Shown: in pieces, positions 28,769 through 41,282 of the stretch
Position numbering within the stretch: position 1 is the first letter of the stretch
Layout of the letters: the number at the start of each line of letters is the position of its first letter
Assembly (NCBI GenBank): GCA_963740355.1
Contig: CAVUDW010000003.1
Coordinates: 1,056,001-1,120,000 of the forward strand
Direction: 5' to 3'
Length of the DNA: 64,000 nt
Origin: an uncultured Gemmatimonadaceae bacterium
GTDB lineage: Bacteria; Gemmatimonadota; Gemmatimonadetes; Gemmatimonadales; Gemmatimonadaceae
Made by a program: the position numbers and the translations under genes
Notes under the pieces: generated by a model
What the model saw: the letters and a program-made list of their open reading frames with translations, nothing else
Database searches by the model: none
What the model was told of the DNA's origin: nothing

Positions 28769-30889
<2,121 letters not shown>

Positions 30890-31174: not shown

Positions 31175-32395
31175 CTACCCGCCGAGGACGCGTCCCAAGT
31201 GGCGACGCCACCGGCGGAAGCTCCGGCTGGCCCCCTCCGACCCGACAGATCCGGAGGCCGACGCGGCTCCCGCTCCTCCGGCGTCTCCAGCATCTCCCGC
31301 ATCAACGGCACCGGCTCGGCCCAGTGCCCAAGGCCAGCCGGACACCGCGTCGCCGAGTCCGTGCATCGCCTGCCGCCACCAATACCGAGACCACGCAACG
31401 GACGGGCTCGCTGCTGGAGAATGGAAGGCACGAAGCACCCATTCGCGCTCGGTCATGCCGGTCAACCAGCCGTTTCGACCGCGGAGTGCCACGATGGCAG
31501 ACTCGTCTACAGCCAGGCCGGCCAGGCGGCTCGCCGTCCATAGCCCCCAGCCGACGGGGAGCCCAGCCCCAATCGACTGCGCGGCCGCCACGACCTCGCG
31601 CCATTCTTTTCCGGCACCAAGCGCTGCCGAGCTCAGCCGATGGGTGTCGTGCAGGTACTGCCAACTGCCGACCTCGCCTTCGTGATTCCATGCCCAATGC
31701 ACTGAGGCGTGCACCAGGTGCCAGGCGGGGGGCAGCACCCTGACCCGGCGCTCGCCCCATGCGACATCCACACCCCGCGCCACCCAGGTCGCGGCCGGCT
31801 CGTCGGCAAATGGATGCCGCGGCGGAAAGAGGCTGCGATGCAGCTCGAGTCGGATACCGCCGCGCCACAGCAGCGGGGCGTCATGGTGATGGTCAGCGTA
31901 CGAGCTCTCACTGCCGCTTTCCCGCCACCCCGCCCGCCGGAGCGCCTCACGTGCCGCGACGTGCTGCTCAGGTTTCACCAGCAGATCGAGGTCGCCCATG
32001 CTCCGGAGCATGAAGTCATCCCGGCTCTGCATCGCCAGCGCCGCCCCCTTGAGCCAGAGCGCCGACACCCCGGCCCCGAGCAGGGCATCGACCGCGGCAC
32101 CCGCCGCTTCAGACAACTCCGCGCTGCGGAACGCGGCCACCCGGAAGATGCCCTGCATGGCATGGTGCACGTCATCCGGCACCGAGCCCACCGGCGCCGC
32201 ACGCAACAGTCGGAACACCTGCGCCTCGGCCCGTTCGAACGACGTCAGCGACACCAACGTCGGCCAGTGCACATCACTCCACGGGAGCTGTGCAGCCACT
32301 GACGCACCTCCATCGGGCATCGCGGCTGCCACCAGCACGCGCGCAGAGGGCGATAGCAGCGCGGGGGCCGTGCGTGGAGTCAGTGGCGCGAGCAT
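31175..32395 (-). CDS. nucleotidyltransferase family protein (NTP_transf_5-like), RiPP-cluster associated
   Basis: LWLKGAAL...RSMGDLDLLV...LELHRSLF signature. Confidence 0.8.
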   Translation of the reverse strand: MLAPLTPRTAPALLSPSARVLVAAAMPDGGASVAAQLPWSDVHWPTLVSLTSFERAEAQVFRLLRAAPVGSVPDDVHHAMQGIFRVAAFRSAELSEAAGAAVDALLGAGVSALWLKGAALAMQSRDDFMLRSMGDLDLLVKPEQHVAAREALRRAGWRESGSESSYADHHHDAPLLWRGGIRLELHRSLFPPRHPFADEPAATWVARGVDVAWGERRVRVLPPAWHLVHASVHWAWNHEGEVGSWQYLHDTHRLSSAALGAGKEWREVVAAAQSIGAGLPVGWGLWTASRLAGLAVDESAIVALRGRNGWLTGMTEREWVLRAFHSPAASPSVAWSRYWWRQAMHGLGDAVSGWPWALGRAGAVDAGDAGDAGGAGAASASGSVGSEGASRSFRRWRRHLGRVLGG

Positions 32396-32401
32396 CAGGC
32401 G

Positions 32402-33205
32402 TCAGTACTGCGTGAGTGTGCCGGCACGGCGCGCGTGCTGCAGCGCCAGATGGAAGCAGGCGCCGCCAAGCACGAGGCCCGCCAGCGAAAACAGCGACAG
32501 CTGCAGCAGGTCAGGCAACACCGCCGACAGCGACACATCCTTCAACAGCAACTGCCGCGCGGCGCGCAAGGCGGGCGTCATCGGCACGAAGCTCGCGAAT
32601 GGCGCAAACGCGGGCGGCAGGACGGTGACCGGGAAATACACGGTGCCGAGCAATGTCGATGCGGTGAGTACCGCCTGCGGAATGAAGAGCGATGATCGCA
32701 CCGCCAGCACGACGGCGCCGGCGATCAGCCCAATGCCCAGATACGCCGCGCCGAGCAGGCACATGATCACCACGAATTCCATCATGCGCGGCCATGCGAT
32801 GGTGGATGTCGCCCAGATCCATGCGGTCACCAGCAACACCAGTGATCGTAACGCGACCCACCCGAAACCGTACGCAGACAAGCCACCGATCATCGACGGC
32901 CACCGAATCGGGGTGGTGAGCAGCTGCTCGAGCGTGCCGGAAGTGATGTAGCTGTTGATCAACGACGGAATCGCCGACACCGCTTCGGCAATCACGAACG
33001 ACGCCACCGACCCGACGATCAGGTACGTGAAGTATTCCGACGACTCGGCCGCGATCGCCTTGGCGGCCAGCGGCTGCAGGGCACCCGCGATGAAATACAC
33101 CGGGATGACGGCGATCAGCACCGACAACAAGCTCACGAGGGTGCGCGTGCGGTACGTGACCATGCTCAGCGTGTACGCGCGCGCCACCGCAAGCAGTCTA
33201 CGCAT
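32402..33205 (-). CDS. ABC-2 type transporter permease
   Basis: About 6 TM segments, GTLEQLLTTP, GTVYFPV..LP; overlaps ATPase stop. Confidence 0.85.
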   Translation of the reverse strand: MRRLLAVARAYTLSMVTYRTRTLVSLLSVLIAVIPVYFIAGALQPLAAKAIAAESSEYFTYLIVGSVASFVIAEAVSAIPSLINSYITSGTLEQLLTTPIRWPSMIGGLSAYGFGWVALRSLVLLVTAWIWATSTIAWPRMMEFVVIMCLLGAAYLGIGLIAGAVVLAVRSSLFIPQAVLTASTLLGTVYFPVTVLPPAFAPFASFVPMTPALRAARQLLLKDVSLSAVLPDLLQLSLFSLAGLVLGGACFHLALQHARRAGTLTQY

Positions 33206-34223
33206 GGCGGACTCCCCCCGCGGGCATCGCGCTCACACCGACGGATTCCAGCAGATCCGCCAGCGTCAGCGCGAGCGGCGCAAACTCCGCCACGCGAACG
33301 CCAGCGCGCACCAGTGCCTCGACCACGACAGGCGCGTGCGCGGCATCCGGGAGCGTTGCCTCGAGCAGGACGAAGCCATCCAGCGGCGGCGTGATCACGT
33401 CGACGGGAAGGTGGAGTAACACGCGTGCGCGCGCTTCATGAGCGGCTTCGACACGCACACGGACCCGCGCGCCACCGACCCTGGAGGCCAGTTGCTGCAA
33501 CGAGTCGGTAGCCACCACTCGCCCTCGCACCATCAACGCAGCGCGATCACACAACTGCATTGCTTCTTCCGTGTTGTGTGTGGCCAGCACGATGGTGGCG
33601 CCGAGTTGCGTGCAGAGCACGTCCCGGATGAACCGGCGAAGCTCACGCGCCGTGATCGGATCGAGGCTGCGCGTCGGTTCATCGAGGATGAGAATCGGCG
33701 GACGTGTGACCAGCGCGCGCGCAATCAACGTCCGCTGGCGCATCCCGGATGAAAAGCTGCCCACCTGCTGACGACCCACGTGCGACAGCCCGACGAGTTC
33801 CAGCGCACTGGCGACGGCAGTGTCGCGCGCCTCGCCGCGGAGCCCGTAAAGCGAGGCGAAGAGCCGAACATTCTCGGCGGCACTGATGCGCCAGAACAAC
33901 GCCCGTTCATCCGCCGGCACAACCGCGAGGCGCGTGCGAACCGCCGCGGGATCGGCGAGTGCATCGACACCATCCACCATCACGCTGCCGCGCTCTGGAA
34001 GCAGCACCGTCGAGAGGATCTTCAGCAGCGTCGTCTTCCCCGCGCCGTTGGCGCCGACGAGCCCGAAGATTTCGCCACGCTGCACGGTGAGACTGACGGC
34101 ATCGAGCACCGCGCGTTGCTGTGTGCCAGGTGCGTGCCGAAGGCGACGGAGCAGTCCGCGGTCGGCACGGAAGAACTTCGACACATCGCGAAGCGCGATC
34201 GCCGGATCGGCACCCTCGGTCAT
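33198..34223 (-). CDS. ABC transporter ATP-binding protein
   Basis: GANGAGKTT Walker A, FSSGMRQR signature, ILDEPT Walker B; start MTEGAD by ATGA overlap with kinase stop. Confidence 0.92.
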   Translation of the reverse strand: MTEGADPAIALRDVSKFFRADRGLLRRLRHAPGTQQRAVLDAVSLTVQRGEIFGLVGANGAGKTTLLKILSTVLLPERGSVMVDGVDALADPAAVRTRLAVVPADERALFWRISAAENVRLFASLYGLRGEARDTAVASALELVGLSHVGRQQVGSFSSGMRQRTLIARALVTRPPILILDEPTRSLDPITARELRRFIRDVLCTQLGATIVLATHNTEEAMQLCDRAALMVRGRVVATDSLQQLASRVGGARVRVRVEAAHEARARVLLHLPVDVITPPLDGFVLLEATLPDAAHAPVVVEALVRAGVRVAEFAPLALTLADLLESVGVSAMPAGGVRHA

Positions 34224-35203
34224 GCTGGCACGCTGTCGTTCGCCGGTGCGTGACCATGCCACTGCAGCAACATGTCGATCACTGCACCGAGCCGAGACAG
34301 GTCGCGTGGCACAGCAAGATCGAACACCGCGGTGGCCTGTGCGATGTCGATGCAGCGCGTGAGCGCATCACCGGCAGCATCGGCGCCAAGGAGTTCCGTG
34401 ATCTTTCCATTCGAGAGTAACGCAAGCGCTGCGGCGCGCGTTGTACGAGGCGCACGCGCGACGTCCGCATCGGGCGACACTGGCGAGAGCACGTAGACGG
34501 CAGCCAGCGGAAGTGCGTCCGTGGCCACGTCGGCAACCACGCGCACTTTCCCCCAGTCATCGACAGTGCTCGACGCAACACCGACGGCTCGTGCGGTTTC
34601 GGCGCGCAATCGAAGCGGCAGTCCAGTCGGCGTCACTGTGACGCCGTGCGCACTCTGTCGCAGCACGACGACATCGTCGGCGACGAGGGCGCATCCGGCC
34701 TGCAGGCACGCAGTGGCGAGCGTGGACTTGCCCGTGCCACGTGGAGCGACGAATGCCACAACACCATCACCCATCACAACCGCGCTGGCGTGCATGCACC
34801 AGTCGCCGTCGCGGTGCAGTGCGTACGGCAACACCACACCGATCAGGTCAAGCGCGACCGCACTGCGGTCCACTCCCGAGGGTGCGAGGTGCGCAATCCG
34901 CCGACCGTCGTTCGAAAGCGTGAAGCGCCCGGTGTCAGTGACGAGGATCTCCGCACCGCCGACGCCTGTCGCAAGCGTCACATCGATGCCGTTCGAATAG
35001 GTGTGTCGCCCGATGATGGTTGCGGCCGGGTCGTGCTCGATGGCTCCCACATCCGACGGCGTCGTACACAGCTCCCAGAACGGGAACTGCCCATCACCGG
35101 GAGCGGCGACAGGCAGGCCAGGAAGTGGGCGATCGGTGGCGAGCACTCTGCCAAACACACGAACCCGCCCCGGCGCGAGATGCGCAGCTGGAGCGGGCTG
35201 CAT
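34220..35203 (-). CDS. HPr kinase-like RiPP kinase
   Basis: MHASAV...APRGTGKST...LVADDVVVL motifs; start re-placed at MQPAPA, 4 nt after the precursor stop. Confidence 0.8.
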   Translation of the reverse strand: MQPAPAAHLAPGRVRVFGRVLATDRPLPGLPVAAPGDGQFPFWELCTTPSDVGAIEHDPAATIIGRHTYSNGIDVTLATGVGGAEILVTDTGRFTLSNDGRRIAHLAPSGVDRSAVALDLIGVVLPYALHRDGDWCMHASAVVMGDGVVAFVAPRGTGKSTLATACLQAGCALVADDVVVLRQSAHGVTVTPTGLPLRLRAETARAVGVASSTVDDWGKVRVVADVATDALPLAAVYVLSPVSPDADVARAPRTTRAAALALLSNGKITELLGADAAGDALTRCIDIAQATAVFDLAVPRDLSRLGAVIDMLLQWHGHAPANDSVPA

Positions 35204-35207
35204 CACA

Positions 35208-35378
35208 TCAGGAACGCGTTCCGCCGCCTGGTGGCGTCGTCTCACCCGGAATGCAGTCACAGGAGGCGACGGAGCCATTGATGACATTCGAATTCAGCGC
35301 AAATGCCCCGAGGTTCAGCGACACCTGGGTCAGCTCGCGAAACGTGCCATAGCGCTCGAGGCGCGGCCGCTCGTACAT
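35208..35378 (-). CDS. lasso-type RiPP precursor peptide (56 aa)
   Basis: MYERPRLERYGTFRELTQ|VSLNLGAFALNSNVINGSVASCDCIPGETTPPGGGTRS; YxxPxL and GxxxxxTx leader; GAGAGG RBS. Confidence 0.85.
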   Translation of the reverse strand: MYERPRLERYGTFRELTQVSLNLGAFALNSNVINGSVASCDCIPGETTPPGGGTRS

Positions 35379-35471
35379 GGAATGCCTCTCAGTCATCTGG
35401 CAAAAAGTGTCGGATGCGCGCCACAGAGACAAGGGCTCTGTGGCATATCTCCACCGCTGCGACGCCCTAAG

Positions 35472-35912
35472 TCAGCGCAGCGTCACACCTTGGAGCGAGG
35501 AAAACCCTCCCCGCAGTGCTTCAGGCTCGGCAATTGGTGTGCCGTCCTGCTCCACCCAGGCGTGGGCCTCGAAGCCCGACGGACCTCGCCGGACCCCGAT
35601 GCGCACCACGGCCCTTGGCAAGCCGTGCTGGGTCACCAGTTCGCGGAGCGCGCTGGCCCGCACGAGGCAGGCCGAGTCACCGGGAAGCCAGCGGAGGGCC
35701 CGATCGACCGCCGCGCCCCAGCGCTCTGCGTGGCGGCGGTCCGCCGGCGACAGTGCCGACTCTCGTCTGGACTCAACAGACTCGGAGACATCATCGGCGG
35801 TGCGTTCAACGAGGGTTCCGACCGGGCGACCCGCCACGAGGCGGCGGGCCCGAACCACGGCCACTGCCGCCAGGCCGACATCGAATGCGGCTCGGGCCTT
35901 CCGCACCAGCAC
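35472..35912 (-). CDS. lasso peptide B2-type leader peptidase (transglutaminase-like)
   Basis: SACLVRASAL...VRIGV...FEAHAWVE (Cys-His catalytic motifs). Confidence 0.88.
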   Translation of the reverse strand: MLVRKARAAFDVGLAAVAVVRARRLVAGRPVGTLVERTADDVSESVESRRESALSPADRRHAERWGAAVDRALRWLPGDSACLVRASALRELVTQHGLPRAVVRIGVRRGPSGFEAHAWVEQDGTPIAEPEALRGGFSSLQGVTLR

Positions 35913-35917
35913 GCTGG

Positions 35918-36202
35918 TCAGCCCAGCGTTGCAGCGGTGTCCACGAGCAGCCCTTCGATCGACAGGTCCGCCAGCAACTCGCGGACGTGGCAGACTACGT
36001 CGGTCGCGCCTGCGTCAGGCCAGCGCTCGCGAACGGCGGCGGCCAGCGCCTCCTCGGACGACGCGCCGCTGGCCAAGGCCTGCCAGATCACGGTGCCGGT
36101 TTCATTCAGACCGAAATACACCTCGGTCAGCGGATGAAAGAGCACGCTGCCGTCGGGCAGTGTGCGCGTGACCACATCGGGGTGCGGAACGGGAAGCGAC
36201 AT
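35918..36202 (-). CDS. PqqD-family RiPP recognition element (lasso B1-type)
   Basis: DGSVLFHP..EVYFGLNETGTVIWQAL...VRELLADLSIEGLL. Confidence 0.88.
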   Translation of the reverse strand: MSLPVPHPDVVTRTLPDGSVLFHPLTEVYFGLNETGTVIWQALASGASSEEALAAAVRERWPDAGATDVVCHVRELLADLSIEGLLVDTAATLG

Positions 36203-36389
36203 CGAGACGGAAAAGGGAATCGGCATCCGGAAGTGAGACGCGCGGGATGCATTCGGGAAACGCACAAAGCGCTCCATCGCGGCAGGGGGTCGCGCACTGC
36301 GACCACCGACCGCGCGCCCTGATACAGACCCCTTCACCTCACGTTCCGTTAAGCAACGAACTCAGCCGAAACAACGTGCCCGCTCTCGT

Positions 36390-37727
36390 TCAGCGTCCAG
36401 GTGCAGGAGCCGATGCAACGCCGCTGACCAGTTTCCCTTCCTTCATCACCATCCGCACACGCTCGATCGCCGCGATCTCACGCGTCGGATCGCCATCGAC
36501 GGCCACGAGGTCGGCCAACATGCCCGGTGCCACGGTGCCGATCCGGTCGCCCATGTCGAGCACCTTGGCGGCAGCAGAGGTGGCGGAGACCAGCGCCTGT
36601 GTCGGTGTGAGGCCGTACTCCACCATCAGGATGGGTTCCCGCGCATTGGTGCCGTGCGTGAACACACCGACGTCACTGCCGTTCGCAATCGTGACGCCGG
36701 CGTCGATCGCCATCTTCACGCTCGCCCGCTTGGCGGTGATGCGCGCGGGTTCCGCACCGGTGCCCTTCTTCCAGCCACCGTACTGCGAGACGGCATCTCC
36801 AGCGGCGACCGTCGGCACCAGCACGACACCACGTTCCTTCATCAGGCGAAAGACTTCCGGCGTGCCATCGTCGCCATGGTCGATGGTTTTCACGCCCGCG
36901 AGAATCGCGCGCCGCATGCCTTCCGGTGTCGTCGAGTGGGCGACGACGTGCCGCCCGCTCGACTCAGCGATTTCAACCACCAGGTTCAATTCGGCCTGCG
37001 TGAAGGCCGGGCGCGCACTGCCATTCGCGCCCCAGCGATAGTCCGCGTAGATCTTGATCCAGTCCGCACCACGGCGGATCTGGTCGCGCACCACACGCGA
37101 CAGTTCTTCCGGCCCGGCAGCCTCCTCGGCGCCTTGCGGCACATCGACTTCCGGTGCGAAGCCACCCGGTCCGTAACTGCCGCGCATCACGATGGCGCGC
37201 GTGACGACGACGAGGCGTGGCCCTTCGATGATGCCCTGCTCGACCGCCTTCTTGAGCCCCACGTCCGCGTCAGCCGCGCCTTCAGTACCGAGGTCGCGCA
37301 AGGTGGTGAATCCTGCGCGCAGTGTGCGCTGCATGCTGACGGTCGCGCGGGCGACGCGAAGTCCGAGTGGCTCCTTGAGCACCTGATCATTCCACGTCGC
37401 TTCGTTGTACGGGTGCAGCAGCACATGCGAGTGGAGGTCGATCATGCCCGGCATCAACGTCATGCCAGGCAGGTCGATGACCGTCGCATCGCTTGGTGCC
37501 TTCACGCTTGCCGGTGAACCCACCGCCGTGATGCGGCCATTCTGCACCAACACCACCACGCCGGACTGCGGAGCCTGGCCCGTGCCATCGAAGACACGCG
37601 CCGGCTTGAGCAGGTAGCTGACCGATACGGCGGCGACGGGGGCTGCCTGTGCTGCGACCAGTGACGGCACGAGTGCTGCGACTGCGGACACACATCGGAG
37701 AACACGTGCGAAGGGCATGAGCATCAT
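36390..37727 (-). CDS. secreted metal-dependent amidohydrolase (prolidase-like group)
   Basis: [35 protein letters not shown] motifs; signal peptide. Confidence 0.88.
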
Positions 37728-39817
37728 CGTGAGCAGAGTGAGGGGCGTGCGGCGCTCGACGCGGGCGAAGTGGCAGCGGGTGATGCCGGTGCCGCAATCG
37801 ATGATGCATCGCGCGGCCAGACGTTGTCGGATGGGTCTCGATCGGGAAAACGACAGCCCGGATCAAAGAGCACCTGCGTGATGCGACGATTGCCGAAGTT
37901 GAGCACTGCGTCGAAGGTGCGCTTGCCACCGAACCAGACATCGACCGGCCAGGTGACGATGGCCGTCACGCTGTCCTGCATGACGGCGTTCGGCATCGGC
38001 TTGATCGCTGGGCCGGTGGCATCGAATCGCACGCGCAGCACGACCGGTGATGGCATCTGTCCATCCTGTCGCACAGTGACGGTGGTGCGCGATCCTTTCA
38101 CTGCCAGGTTCGCGATCGAACCGTCGACACGTTCGGTGGTGAAGAGCCAGGAATACCAGAACCACCCGAGATCACGATTGAGGGCCTTGTTCATGAAGAA
38201 CATGTAGTCCCACGGCGACGGATGCTTGAACATCCAGGCGGTCGCCCATTCACGCTGCGCGCGCCGTACTGCCGAATCGCCGACCACACCACCGAGCATC
38301 GACAGCATCAACGGCGTCTTGCCATAGGTGGTGAAGCTGTACGAGGGGCCGGCGTAGTTCGCGTTCCACATCATTGGCGGCTCGCTCTCACTGCCGCTGG
38401 TGAGGCCGTACGACTGTCCCAGGCGATCGAGATTCGGCGACTGCTTCGTGTTGTCGGCCGCCGAGAGGATGTTCATGTACTGGTTGAATCCTTCATCCAT
38501 CCAGCCGTACCAGGTCTCGTTGTTGCTCACCACCATCGGCCACCACTGATGCCCGGTTTCGTGATCGGCGGCGCCCTGATTGGAATTGATCACCATCGGG
38601 TATTCCATGCCGGCACTGGGCCCGTCCTGCAGCGTCAGTTGCGGGAACTGGTACGGGAACCAGAGTGCAGAGTAGAACTCGAGCGCATGGCGCGTGATGC
38701 GACCCGCATTGGCGAACAGGGCTTCCCGTCCCGGCAGGTAGACCATGTGCACCGGCACCGGACCCTTGCCAGGTATGGTGGCGCGTGTTGCCTGCCAGAC
38801 GAACTTCTTCGCCGTGGCCCATGCAAAGTCATTGACGTTGTCGGCCACGAGGTGCCACACCAGTCGATCACCAATCGCCGTGGCCTGCCCCGGGCCAATT
38901 TCAGTCGGACCGACGATGGTGACGATGCTGTCGCTCTCCAGCACGCGCGCGAGACTGGCACGTGCAGCGGCCGTAAGCACCTGATCCGGATTCTGCAGCA
39001 CGCCGGTGCCGCTGACGATCCAGCCTCCGGGCACATCGATCTTCACATCGAAGCGGCCGAAGTTGTTGTAGAACTCTGACGGGCCCAGATACAGCTCCGG
39101 ATCCCAGCCACGCAGGTCGTCATAGACGGCGATGCGCGGGAACCACTGTGTGGGCTGAAAGAGTGAATCAGCCCAGCGTTGTGTCATGCGATGGCCAGAC
39201 CCTGGCCCGCCCGGCAGCGCGTGGTTCCACTCGATGTCGATGGTGGCACTGCCGTTCGGTGCAATGGCGGATGCGAGGAAGAGTCGCGCGAGCGTGGACT
39301 TCAGGTTCACCACGGCGGCTTCGGTGGCGACGGCGCCGCGTGAGGGCGGCGGCGCGTCGAACCGCACCGGCTTGCCATTGACGCGAATGGCCGTGACCAC
39401 CATGCCGTCGGTCAGCTGCGCCGGCACCCACGGCAATGCGCGTGGATTGGTCCCGATGAAATGGTTGGCATCCAGCCGCAGTGCGATCTGCGAGAGCGAG
39501 TCGGGGCTGGCGTTGTGAAGCGTGATCGTCTCGCGCCCACTCAGACGCTGGGCGGGCACATCGAGTCGCGCCTGGATGACATAGTCGGTGCGCAGTTGCC
39601 AGTATTTCGCGCCGGGCTTGCCGGTGGAGTCGCGGGTCCCGGCACGAAACGCGGCGCGGATCGCGTCGGTCATCGGGATGTCGCGACGGATGGCGCGGTC
39701 GGGCCAGGCTGACGGAGCGGACTGGGCAAGCGCTGTGGACGCTGCCAATACGAGGATGGCGGGGAGTCGAAGCACGGGCGAACAGGCCCGGATGTGGCGT
39801 ACGATTTGGCAAGGCAT
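37724..39817 (-). CDS. secreted M1-family metallo-aminopeptidase
   Basis: [13 protein letters not shown] and downstream WMDEG; start position uncertain. Confidence 0.85.
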
Positions 39818-39863
39818 GCGGAATCGTCGACCACAACGACCGCAGGCGCAAGAGCGGCGGGTA

Positions 39864-41282
39864 CTATTCGCCGAGCGCGAGCACCGACGCCACGGCGGCG
39901 AGCGTGCGCCGCACATCCTCCGCATTCGTGCGCCAGTTCACGACGCTGACACGCATGGCCCGCTGTCCCTGCCACGTGGTGCCGCTGAAAAAGGCCTCGC
40001 CGGTGGCATTCACGCCCTCGATCACGGCATCGGTACGCCGGTCGTGATCGGCGCTCGTTGCCCCCAGGCGCGGGTCGAGGAACCGCACCAGACCCTGATT
40101 CAGGTTCGGTTCCCAGAGCACCTCGGCGCCTGGCAACGCGCCGATGCCGGTGACGATGGAGTGGCAGTGTGCACAGTCGCGATCGATCAGGTCGGCGAGG
40201 CCGTTGCGGCCCATTTCCCGAAGGGCCGCAAAGACGGCGAACCCACGCGCACGACGTGACCACTCCGGATTCCAGTCGATCTGGCTCCGTACATCGGTGT
40301 TCTCGGAGATGTACGAGGCCGAGAGTGTCATGGAAGCGCGATGCGCCTCGCGGTCACGCACGACGGCAAAGCCGCAGTCGTACGGTACGTTGAGCCACTT
40401 GTGTGCATCGGTGGCCCAGCTGTCCGCGAGCTCGACGCCGCGCAGCAGTTCTCGCTTGGTCGCGCTGGCACGCGCCATCAGGCCGAACGCACCGTCGATG
40501 TGCACCCAGGCGCCAGCAGCATGCGCGATCGGGATGAGCGTCGCAAAATCATCGATGGCACCGATGTTGAGGTCCGCGGCATCGAGCACCACGATCGTCG
40601 GTCCAGCGTGTGCGGCCAGCGCTGCGGCGAGCGTCCTGGCTTCGACGACGCCTATGTGGTTGGTGGGCAGCGCCACCAACGCATTGCTGCCGATACCGAG
40701 GAAGCGAATCGCGCGATCGATCGAGCCGTGGCGATGTTCACTGGTCAGGACACGAATCGCTGGCGCACCAAACAATCCATCGCCGTGCACATCCCAGCCC
40801 GCGCGTGAAAGGACTGCATGACGGGCGGCGGCAAGCGCGGTGAAATGCGCCAGTTGGCAGCCAGTGGTGAACGCGAATGATGCATCGCGCGGCAGGTCGA
40901 GCACGTCGAGCAACCATGCGCCCGCTACTTCCTCGACGACGGCCGCCGCCGGCGCCGTGGAATAGATGGCGGCATTCTGATCCCACGCGCACGTCAACCA
41001 ATCCGCCGCCAGCGCCGATGGCAGCGCCCCGCCGATGACCCAGGCGAAAAATCGTCCGCTGACCGCGGCATGCAATCCGCCATCGGTCATCGCGACGAGG
41101 TCGTCGATCACCTGCTCCGCGCTGACGCCATCCGCTTCGAGTGCGATGTGCATCCTGCGCCGCAACTCGGCGGCGGAAGCGGTGGCGCCGACCGAGCGGG
41201 TATCGATGCCGTCGAGCCACGCGAGCGCAGCAGCGTGCGCGCGCTCGAGGGCCGCGTGTGCGGTGGGGTGGGGCGTGGTCAT
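39864..41282 (-). CDS. PLP-dependent (group II) amino-acid decarboxylase
   Basis: WVHIDGAFG, DSWATDAHKWLNVPYDCG (PLP lysine). Confidence 0.88.
   Translation of the reverse strand: MTTPHPTAHAALERAHAAALAWLDGIDTRSVGATASAAELRRRMHIALEADGVSAEQVIDDLVAMTDGGLHAAVSGRFFAWVIGGALPSALAADWLTCAWDQNAAIYSTAPAAAVVEEVAGAWLLDVLDLPRDASFAFTTGCQLAHFTALAAARHAVLSRAGWDVHGDGLFGAPAIRVLTSEHRHGSIDRAIRFLGIGSNALVALPTNHIGVVEARTLAAALAAHAGPTIVVLDAADLNIGAIDDFATLIPIAHAAGAWVHIDGAFGLMARASATKRELLRGVELADSWATDAHKWLNVPYDCGFAVVRDREAHRASMTLSASYISENTDVRSQIDWNPEWSRRARGFAVFAALREMGRNGLADLIDRDCAHCHSIVTGIGALPGAEVLWEPNLNQGLVRFLDPRLGATSADHDRRTDAVIEGVNATGEAFFSGTTWQGQRAMRVSVVNWRTNAEDVRRTLAAVASVLALGE

Follow-up and report, generated by a model that had tools for sequence, protein, structure and literature searches.

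Organization of the operon

A 64,000-nt stretch of an uncultured Gemmatimonadaceae genome (GenBank assembly GCA_963740355.1, contig CAVUDW010000003.1, positions 1,056,001 to 1,120,000 of the forward strand), hereafter the window, contained an operon of the lasso peptide type, a class of peptide that is made by the ribosome and modified after translation (RiPP), in which no cyclase gene was found. The operon was composed of seven genes on the minus strand in the order B1–B2–A–K–Da–Dp–N, followed by fusA (Table 1). Gene A encoded the precursor peptide, and B1 a discrete, PqqD-like RiPP recognition element (RRE). The remaining genes were assigned to a leader peptidase (B2), a putative peptide kinase (K), the ATPase and the permease of an ATP-binding cassette (ABC) transporter (Da and Dp), and a nucleotidyltransferase-family protein (N), the counterpart of PsmN, BsfN, and LppN. 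The operon was gap-free except for the 93-nt B2–A spacer and had no room for a further gene. An RRE and a cysteine peptidase, both expected of a lasso pathway, were present, with matches to PF05402, PF13471, and NF033537 above the cut-offs. Family searches of the operon gave no asparagine-synthetase-like gene, and no signal peptidase gene was present among the seven assigned genes.

The alignments of B1 orthologs started at residues 38–48 in many species, and the real start of B1 is probably an internal Met codon, at 36226 or 36202. The probable ATG of Da at 34223 overlapped the stop codon of the kinase gene as ATGA. The long open reading frames (ORFs) of the plus strand across the cluster (among them 35001–36137, 378 aa, and 34646–35281) were rejected as shadow ORFs of high-GC DNA, which had no family matches and lay antisense to conserved genes.

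Table 1. Coordinates of the operon, its parts and its neighbours in the window.
Feature	Coordinates	Strand	Basis
Precursor gene A	35208–35378	minus	Translation, NF033521 match, orthologs
A, leader (codons 1–18)	35325–35378	minus	
A, core (codons 19–56)	35211–35324	minus	
A, stop codon	35208–35210	minus	
B1, PqqD-like discrete RRE	35918–36337	minus	PF05402 E 5e-11; sub-threshold NF033530, TIGR04353
B2, transglutaminase-like Cys leader peptidase	35472–35912	minus	NF033537 68 bits (cut-off 33), PF13471 78 bits
B2–A spacer, 93 nt	35379–35471	minus	Sequence and alignment of 22 upstream regions
K, HprK/PEPCK-fold P-loop peptide kinase (putative)	34220–35206	minus	Sub-threshold family matches, motifs, AlphaFold2/Foldseek
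Da, ABC transporter ATPase, DrrA-like	33198–34223	minus	PF00005 E 2e-32
Dp, ABC-2 type permease, exporter partner	32402–33205	minus	PF01061 E 1e-8
N, NTP_transf_5 nucleotidyltransferase-family protein	31175–32395	minus	PF14907 E 2.5e-35
fusA (elongation factor G), flanking marker	28769–30889	minus	Translation
tuf-like ORF, 397 aa	27536–28729	minus	tuf label from ORF length alone
Amidohydrolase	36390–37727	minus	PF01979
M1 peptidase, secreted-looking	37724–39925	minus	PF01433

Precursor peptide

The product of A was 56 aa long (MYERPRLERYGTFRELTQVSLNLGAFALNSNVINGSVASCDCIPGETTPPGGGTRS; minus-strand translation of 35208–35432) and started at an ATG at 35378, with a Shine-Dalgarno-like motif, GAGAGG, located 6 nt 5′ of this codon. 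Residues 2–18 were an exact fit to the leader pattern YxxPxLx3Gx5Tx through Tyr2, Pro5, Leu7, Gly11, and Thr17, which stood at positions −17, −14, −12, −8, and −2 of the leader, respectively. The NCBIfam model NF033521 (lasso_leader_L3) matched A with 26.6 bits (cut-off 19). Both the RRE-binding YxxPxL motif and the Thr at −2 of a lasso leader were thus found. The predicted core, residues 19–56, was composed of 38 aa, of which Val was the first and Arg-Ser the last. It had a hydrophobic, Asn-rich N-terminal half and a Cys-Asp-Cys (CDC) motif. Core positions 7–9 were Ala-Phe-Ala and held no Asp or Glu acceptor, and the earliest acidic residues were Asp23 and Glu28.

The initial annotation, made from the letters of the window, had described this canonical leader and a 38-aa core with Ala-Phe-Ala at 7–9, Asp23 and Glu28, Val1, the CDC motif, and a C-terminal Ser, and all of these were borne out by the translation. 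It had also set Val1 against the usual residue 1 of lasso rings (Gly, Ser, Ala, or Cys), but Val1 was no anomaly here. The cores of cyclase-bearing sister clusters, which have Asp8, start with Val or Ile as well, and Val1 is therefore normal in Gemmatimonadota.

The ORF track was said to mis-start A and to overlap it with the kinase gene, and both statements proved correct. The longest ORF began at a TTG at 35432, ahead of the real ATG at 35378; as a stop codon was located three codons 5′ of the Met in two congeners, this ATG is the only usable start. The kinase ORF, called from 35287, overlapped A by 80 nt. A GTG or ATG located 1–4 nt after the A stop (35206/35203) was the conserved start of K. 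The GTG was found in 16 of 19 orthologs and was the sole available start in 5 of them. The overlap with A is therefore an artefact, and a K start 1 nt past the A stop suggests translational coupling.

Search for a cyclase

No macrolactam cyclase was found in the cluster or in the genome of the source organism (G000; 5 contigs, 94.5% complete). The ten matches of PF00733 in G000 were accounted for by five Asn-synthase genes and three weak matches. The five paralogs all began with MCGI(A/C)G, which contains the glutaminase nucleophile. They passed the AsnB equivalog model TIGR01536 with 363–478 bits (cut-off 267) and scored lower, with 191–270 bits, on the lasso cyclase model NF033535; all five look like genuine AsnB. 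The cyclases of two sister-genus clusters, L040 and L047, started with MSAILG and MSGFLC, respectively, Cys1 being missing. On NF033535 they scored 226 and 204 bits, compared with only 178 and 162 bits on TIGR01536, which is under the cut-off of the latter.

When the L040 cyclase was compared with 20 genomes of the genus, the best match had only 104 bits and 28% identity, and the best match in G000 was an AsnB gene with 85 bits. For calibration, real cyclase orthologs from different genera of the family gave 195–491 bits and 35–46% identity, and AsnB paralogs gave at most 113 bits. The lasso cyclase is regarded as absent from G000, of which 5% is unassembled. The lack of a cyclase stated in the initial annotation was thus confirmed at the locus, in G000, and, with the L040 query, in 20 genomes of the genus. 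A cyclase acting in trans in G000, which has one B2 and five AsnB-type paralogs, was also considered and rejected. In two other genomes, G032 and G025, cassettes were found with no cyclase on the same contig; since cyclase orthologs were located elsewhere in these genomes, they were not counted as cyclase-less.

Lasso peptides are defined by a cyclase and a ring. As neither a cyclase nor an Asp or Glu at core positions 7–9 was found, the product of A was not classed as a lasso peptide.

One AsnB paralog of G000 (contig C2, 625094–626235; L004/L005) was split over two frames, with 498 and 471 aa open. Either a frameshift has made it a pseudogene, or the assembly is in error at this place.

Conservation and selection

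A six-frame search for A was made in 61 genomes, namely G000, 19 congeners, and 41 more distant genomes. A was found in all 19 congeners with 71–91% identity, 18 copies being full-length and one cut by a contig end. Over all genomes, 43 of 61 gave matches at E ≤ 1, including weak matches to the leader only and a match in an unpublished genome (G026), on which no conclusion rests. The 19 full-length sequences, including that of the window, shared the same leader, a core start of V/F-S-(L/V)-(N/G), an ASCDC(I/L/V)P segment, and a terminal Arg-Ser. The order B2–A–K was kept at all 19 loci, with B2 located ~95 nt upstream and K immediately downstream of A, and no stop codons or frameshifts were found at any of them. 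In all ten congeners with a retrieved stretch of up to 20 kb, the gene order was M1 peptidase, amidohydrolase, B1, B2, A, K, Da, Dp, and N. fusA followed N in nine of these, i.e. in all whose contigs reached that far.

The ratio of nonsynonymous to synonymous change (dN/dS; pairwise Nei–Gojobori, 19 sequences) was 0.029 for the leader of A, 0.085 for core residues 1–27, and 0.079 for core residues 1–14. The proportion of synonymous differences (pS, 0.47–0.67) was near saturation. Third positions varied in 43 of 45 codons and second positions in 9 of 45. These values indicate that the frame of A is a coding frame under strong purifying selection, and with so many variable third positions no overlapping functional element was seen on the opposite strand. 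The dN/dS values of B1, B2, K, Da, Dp, and N were 0.43, 0.24, 0.27, 0.13, 0.16, and 0.28, respectively (16–19 species compared). Purifying selection on A and on all six other genes of the operon rules out decay.

Core type and cyclase in related loci

A degenerate-pattern scan with the precursor alignment over 185,579 species genomes gave 80 loci, and a scan of metagenomes gave 80 further loci. All 80 loci of the genome scan were from metagenome-assembled genomes of Gemmatimonadota, mostly Gemmatimonadaceae and some Longimicrobiales, one of them being labelled Gemmatimonas aurantiaca. The common architecture among the relatives was B1–B2–C–A–K–Da–Dp–N–fusA, where C is the cyclase gene, at the same fusA-adjacent site. 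fusA was the next gene downstream of N or Dp at cyclase-less and cyclase-bearing loci alike, and as a flanking marker it shows that the operon of the window is orthologous to the sister clusters. The cores of these common relatives started with V/I-G-F-N-G-T-T-D, so that residue 1 was Val or Ile and residue 8 was Asp, and Phe8 of the core in the window was aligned opposite this Asp8.

The relation between core type and cyclase was counted over the loci that showed B2, A, and K together. The cyclase was missing from all 35 loci with a CDC-type core (17 genomic and 18 metagenomic), and it was present at all 44 loci with an Asp or Glu at core positions 7–9 (31 genomic and 13 metagenomic). The 81 loci outside this count were 48 orphan precursors, all but one with Asp or Glu at 7–9, and 33 partial clusters at contig ends. 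As the loci are kin and not independent trials, the association represents essentially one evolutionary event. The proposal of the initial annotation that acceptor and cyclase were lost by co-evolution and not by decay was supported by this association, together with the dN/dS values and the orthologs in 19 congeners.

When the CDC-type cores from the locus scans were combined with 50 protein clusters from a search of 5.8 billion proteins, 67 distinct cores were obtained. None of the 67 had Asp or Glu at positions 7–9. Residue 1 was Val in 61, Leu in 4, Phe in 1, and Met in 1, and residue 2 was Ser in 66 and Ala in 1. The alignment of homologous precursors, which had been proposed as a check on the CxC and the terminal Arg-Ser, found both to be conserved: G-x4-C-D-C was present in all 67 cores, with exactly two Cys residues in 66, and the Arg-Ser end was present in 65, the two exceptions being from contigs of 535 and 547 nt. 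The residue two positions before the Gly of this motif was Val, Leu, or Ile in 65 of 67. The leader was identical in 45 of the 67 members, and Thr(−2)-Gln(−1) was conserved. A divergent sub-branch (L066 and L145–L147) had cores starting with L-S/A-P and the first Asp at 11–12; its loci likewise had the gene order without a cyclase.

The 17 cyclase-less sequences formed one clade (SH-aLRT 100) when a maximum-likelihood tree was built from 50 kinases and rooted on a Longimicrobiales cluster. The stem of this clade measured 1.57 substitutions per site, and the clade was nested among kinases of cyclase-type clusters, so that one change of state explains the distribution of the cyclase. The fusA-adjacent, cyclase-bearing clusters are evidently the ancestral form. 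When cassette-type loci were added in a second tree, the clade was placed in an unresolved fork (SH-aLRT <80) with L047, which is of cyclase type, L044, and L048. The reading of a recent loss within this genus only was softened for this reason, and the loss of the cyclase is dated only as no later than the base of the clade.

Several other precursor types were observed among the relatives. L044 (G032, contig C273, 7453–7566, minus strand) had a 20-aa Trp/Arg-rich core (FFGWWWRRRWSWHYHNSGSR) with no Asp or Glu, and L048 (G033, contig C5, 7685–7849, minus strand) had a Gly-Phe repeat core (GFWNFFGGGFGG...) ending in GSR. Each was located beside B1 and a kinase gene, and both genomes, which belong to other Gemmatimonadaceae genera, had cyclase orthologs. 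Many cyclase-type Gemmatimonadaceae genomes had an additional, orphan copy of a precursor of the VGFNGTTD... type, around which no biosynthetic gene was found over up to 10 kb. Such copies were observed at 19 loci of the genome scan and 29 of the metagenome scan, among them L067, L068, L083–L085, L088, L093, L094, L097, L100, L113, L118, L125, and L127. They are presumably processed in trans. The cyclase-type cluster L078 (539–4969, plus strand) was located between rpoC and fusA, with rpoC upstream instead of the M1 peptidase and amidohydrolase. It seems that the surroundings of the rpoBC/str operon are preferred by lasso clusters of the kinase type.

Kinase

The scores of K on kinase family models were low, with PF07475 at E 7e-4 and 19.7 bits (cut-off 33.3) and TIGR04352 (HprK-related kinase A) at E 9e-6 and 25 bits (cut-off 200). 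A sequence search against solved structures gave only matches with E > 0.6. K contained a GTGKST P loop, and residues His138, Gly158, Asp176, and Asp177 were invariant, and Lys159 nearly so, among 32 kinases. According to the accessible text of PMC9266682, a His-Lys-Asp-Asp set characterises the lasso kinases. Residues His138, Lys159, Asp176, and Asp177 of K correspond to this set, which supports the assignment as a kinase. The AlphaFold2 model of K, calculated from the alignment of 32 kinases, had a mean pLDDT of 92.4. When this model was compared with known structures by using Foldseek, it was matched to phosphoenolpyruvate carboxykinases (PEPCK) with E 3e-8 and TMq ~0.55, and to the HprK/P structure 1kkl_B with E 5e-6 and TMt 0.56. 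The modelled K thus appears to have the HprK/PEPCK-type P-loop kinase fold that is expected for lasso kinases.

Leader peptidase and B2–A spacer

B2 was the single PF13471 match in G000 and hence the sole B2 of the genome. The Cys and His were kept in all 44 aligned B2 sequences. The acidic residue located 12 positions after the His, which by the spacing of the McjB triad is taken to be the acid of the triad, was Glu in all 17 cyclase-less sequences and Asp in all 27 of cyclase type. A search of B2 against the sequences of solved structures gave only chance matches to clostridial toxin repeat modules (E 0.005–0.18), which, like those of K, were set aside.

The site of the 93-nt spacer was occupied in the sister clusters by the cyclase gene of ~650 aa. 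The spacer contained a block conserved throughout the genus (35400–35445), CTTGTCTCTGTGG...CCGACACT(A/T)TTT, which can also be written CTTGTCTCTGTGG...CCGACACTWTTT. In the source genome, the spacer also contained an 8-bp inverted repeat, CCACAGAG/CTCTGTGG. The conserved block may be the own promoter of A or an RNA element. A scan for consensus sigma-70 promoters gave 0 sites, so that the promoter is put forward as a suggestion only, and terminator-like sites were at chance level.

Neighbouring genes

The M1 peptidase and the amidohydrolase, which adjoin B1 on its upstream side and share its strand, overlapped each other by 4 nt and had signal-peptide-like N-termini. Among the 16 loci of the genus, the amidohydrolase was present at 13, the M1 peptidase at 13, and at least one of them at 14; neither was upstream of B1 at any of the 64 other genome loci. 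They could be enzymes that trim in the periplasm, or just genes that happen to lie next to the operon. On the downstream side, the contigs of at least seven congeners stopped ~6.5 kb from A, just beyond fusA, which is probably due to assembly breaks at a duplicated tuf and not to biology.

Proposed pathway and alternatives

The operon is probably, although with considerable doubt, a lasso-derived RiPP operon from which the cyclase and the ring-acceptor Asp were lost together and which is still a working pathway, with a linear, non-threaded phosphopeptide as its product. For the cleavage site, the phosphorylation and its site, the role of the nucleotidyltransferase, export, and biological function, we infer only the following. 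The RRE of B1 would bind the YxxPxL leader. Since this leader is nearly invariant (identical in 45 of 67 members, dN/dS 0.03), B1 can be argued to bind it still, and the kinase and B2 to depend on it as before. B2 would cut past Thr-Gln(−1), i.e. after Gln18, and release the 38-aa linear core. This site is suggested by the YxxPxL position, which is fixed at −17 to −12 in the accessible part of PMC10368454, and by a junction common to the sister precursors, in which Asp8 fixes the register.

The HprK-like kinase would phosphorylate a conserved Ser, most likely the C-terminal Ser, with Ser2 of the core as the alternative. In the accessible parts of the reports, PadeK, ThcoK, and SyanK phosphorylate the C-terminal Ser of their precursors (PMC9266682), and BsfK (PMC10368454) and LppK (PMC13381572) phosphorylate Ser3 of the core. 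In the precursors of cyclase-type sister clusters, residue 2 is mostly Gly and the last two residues are frequently Gly-Ser or Arg-Ser, which favours the C-terminal Ser. On the sequences, this residue is rated the probable acceptor, and Ser2 a distinctly weaker but real candidate. The nucleotidyltransferase-family protein may decorate the phosphate further, with a hexose or a nucleotide, as proposed for PsmN in the accessible text of PMC9266682; this step, drawn by analogy, is speculative. The ABC-2 transporter is assumed from its conservation to export the product. The G-x4-C-D-C motif could form a disulfide or bind a metal.

Several points weigh against this reading. The phosphorylation site is ambiguous, in that Ser2 and the C-terminal Ser are invariant to the same degree, and the two characterised relatives of non-Bacillota type differ, as far as their accessible reports go, in the site of phosphorylation. 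According to the accessible text of PMC13381572, LppN was inactive in the sole published linear system. K reached the curated cut-off of none of the kinase family models, and the Glu in place of Asp in B2 of all cyclase-less members could mean an altered activity. A second processing site would fit the invariant G-x4-CDC with Val, Leu, or Ile at −2. As G000 is 94.5% complete, its missing part could formally contain a cyclase. Furthermore, the search of sequencing runs gave no RNA run with the locus, and three sediment-metagenome DNA runs had small shares of it.

The invariant motif gives rise to an alternative in which the precursor is processed internally, past (V/L/I)-(N/S/G) before Gly17, to a linear peptide of ~22 aa starting with GSVASCDC, and the N-terminal half of the core acts as an extended leader or a follower. 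The initial annotation had proposed such a cryptic GSVASCD register, with Asp at ring position 7. The conservation on which it depends was confirmed, G-x4-CDC being present in 67 of 67 cores and Val, Leu, or Ile two positions before the Gly in 65 of 67. Leaders with Ile or Val at −2 were validated experimentally in the kinase-type Bsf system in the accessible part of PMC10368454, and an exported peptide could be shortened by the M1 aminopeptidase and the amidohydrolase, which lie upstream and are specific to this clade. However, the YxxPxL motif would then fall at −33 to −28 and not at the fixed −17 to −12, the FRELTQ junction is common to sister precursors whose Asp8 sets the cut right after the Gln, and the ring of the earlier proposal would have no cyclase to close it. 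Core residues 1–14 are under selection equal to that on the rest (dN/dS 0.079), which fits a role in the mature peptide as well as a role in a leader. Internal processing is considered unlikely. Even less is expected of an account in which the leader is kept because the protease role of B2 was changed or lost, and the full-length 56-mer, possibly phosphorylated, is functional or acts inside the cell, e.g. as a regulator. The Glu in 17 of 17 cyclase-less B2 sequences, against Asp in 27 of 27 of cyclase type, is in its favour, and the unphosphorylated LPP precursor was cleaved poorly in the accessible text of PMC13381572, so that processing can be conditional. However, B2 has retained its Cys and His with a dN/dS of 0.24, the Thr(−2)-Gln(−1) pair is conserved beside a leader unchanged in 45 of 67, and a dedicated ABC exporter is conserved.

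There is only a slight chance that A is still cyclised, through a Gly17–Asp23 or Val1–Asp23 ring or a Cys crosslink, by an enzyme that is not of the Asn-synthetase type or by an unassembled cyclase. Gly17 and Asp23 are invariant and spaced as a 7-residue ring, the incomplete assembly of G000 (94.5%) leaves space for a gene, and the kinase or the nucleotidyltransferase might, as a speculation, activate a carboxylate. Against this, a lasso-type cyclase was found neither in G000 nor, with the sister cyclase as query, in 20 genomes of the genus, and all 35 independent contigs lacked one in the cluster. The operon also has no further modifying enzyme, and the searched literature contained no precedent for such chemistry. 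A similarly slight chance is given to the idea that G-x4-C-D-C is the site of a new, cyclase-free crosslink or ring, in which an acyl-phosphate or acyl-adenylate of Asp23 is captured by an amine, or a link is formed within CxC. If this were true, lasso chemistry would have been replaced by a new RiPP macrocyclisation and not by linearity, and the long stem of the kinase clade and the Asp-to-Glu change of B2 would be traces of re-purposing. That the locus is a decaying, functionless remnant of a lasso cluster is the account least in keeping with the data and is extremely improbable. The locus has indeed lost both the cyclase and the Asp/Glu acceptor, the two elements by which a lasso is defined, but dN/dS was 0.03–0.085 for A and 0.13–0.43 for the six other genes with synonymous sites near saturation, none of the 19 loci had a stop codon or frameshift, and 67 distinct cores were intact.

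The locus shows that the remaining lasso machinery (leader, RRE, B2, kinase, nucleotidyltransferase, and exporter) can persist under strong selection after the cyclase and the ring were lost. The loss is traceable to a single event, whose chromosomal site is fixed, and the cyclase-bearing sister clusters complete a natural before-and-after pair. Such a pair can serve for the study of recognition by B1, B2, and the kinase, of which Ser is phosphorylated, and of the role of the phosphate, or of a sugar, without the lasso fold. Genome-mining rules that need a cyclase, or that score Asp or Glu at positions 7–9, will discard the CDC-type family.

Comparison with known systems

A full-text literature search, which did not extend to subscription journals and supplements, gave no B2-dependent, cyclase-less pathway of the lasso type and no characterised lasso peptide from Gemmatimonadota. 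In the accessible part of the RRE-Finder report, about half of the lasso-type discrete RREs had no co-occurring peptidase and cyclase and were treated as possible false positives.

The uncharacterised fusA-adjacent lasso clusters of other Gemmatimonadaceae and of Longimicrobiales have in common with the operon of the window the site, the gene order, and the leader family ([RK][FYL]G[TNS]FR[EDT]LTQ). Their cores also have Val, Ile, or Leu at residue 1 and a mid-core Asn-Gly, and many end in Gly-Ser or Arg-Ser. However, they have a cyclase of ~650 aa between B2 and A together with Asp8, whereas the operon of the window has the 93-nt spacer and Phe8. Ser2 in place of their Gly2, the new CDC motif, the long stem of the kinase clade, and the Glu for Asp in B2 are further differences.

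The gene set A, B1, B2, K, N, and D is shared with the phosphorylated lasso peptides, namely paeninodin (PadeK), the substrates of ThcoK and SyanK, pseudomycoidin (PsmK/PsmN), and the bsf product of Bradymonas sediminis, as described in the accessible parts of PMC9266682 and PMC10368454. The YxxPxL at −17 to −12 and the C-terminal Ser, as in PadeA, ThcoA, and SyanA, are likewise shared. The bsf cluster, too, is bordered by ribosomal protein genes (accessible text of PMC10368454). According to the same accessible texts, those systems have a cyclase gene C and a core Asp or Glu at 7–9 and form threaded lassos, whereas the operon of the window has neither the cyclase nor the acceptor.

The nearest published analogue in mode of working is the pathway of the linear polyphosphorylated peptides (LPP), encoded by lppA-K-B-S-D-N in Paenibacillus alginolyticus and other Bacillota (Popov et al., Nat Commun 2026, PMC13381572; the comparison refers to the accessible part of this report). 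Both systems lack a cyclase and combine a discrete RRE for the YxxP leader with an HprK-like kinase, an NTP transferase, and an exporter, and both are offshoots of kinase-type lasso pathways. A leader-trimmed linear phosphopeptide would be the product in each case; the cyclase-free linear product of LPP was shown by mass spectrometry, and that of the window is predicted. However, LPP has the SipW-like (SpI-like) signal peptidase LppS and no B2, whereas this operon has B2 and no signal peptidase. The LPP leader is YxxPxVLxHQxIxFETxxS, and the leader here, YERPRLERYGTFRELTQ, is of the canonical lasso type with no HQxIxFET. The exporter is MsbA-like in LPP and a two-gene ABC-2 exporter here. LPP is phosphorylated at Ser3 of the core, where the present core has Leu, and LPP cores have variable C-termini in place of the Arg-Ser that is invariant here. 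Furthermore, LPP and the paeninodins are described in that text as restricted to Bacillota, whereas this operon belongs to Gemmatimonadota.

The operon of the window is thus not an LPP member, and the two pathways arose independently. The CDC-type family would extend the cyclase-free linear analogues of lasso peptides past Bacillota, where they were described only in 2026 and with a different peptidase, and its occurrence in an uncultured phylum of soils and sediments suggests that lasso peptides gave way to linear ones more than once.

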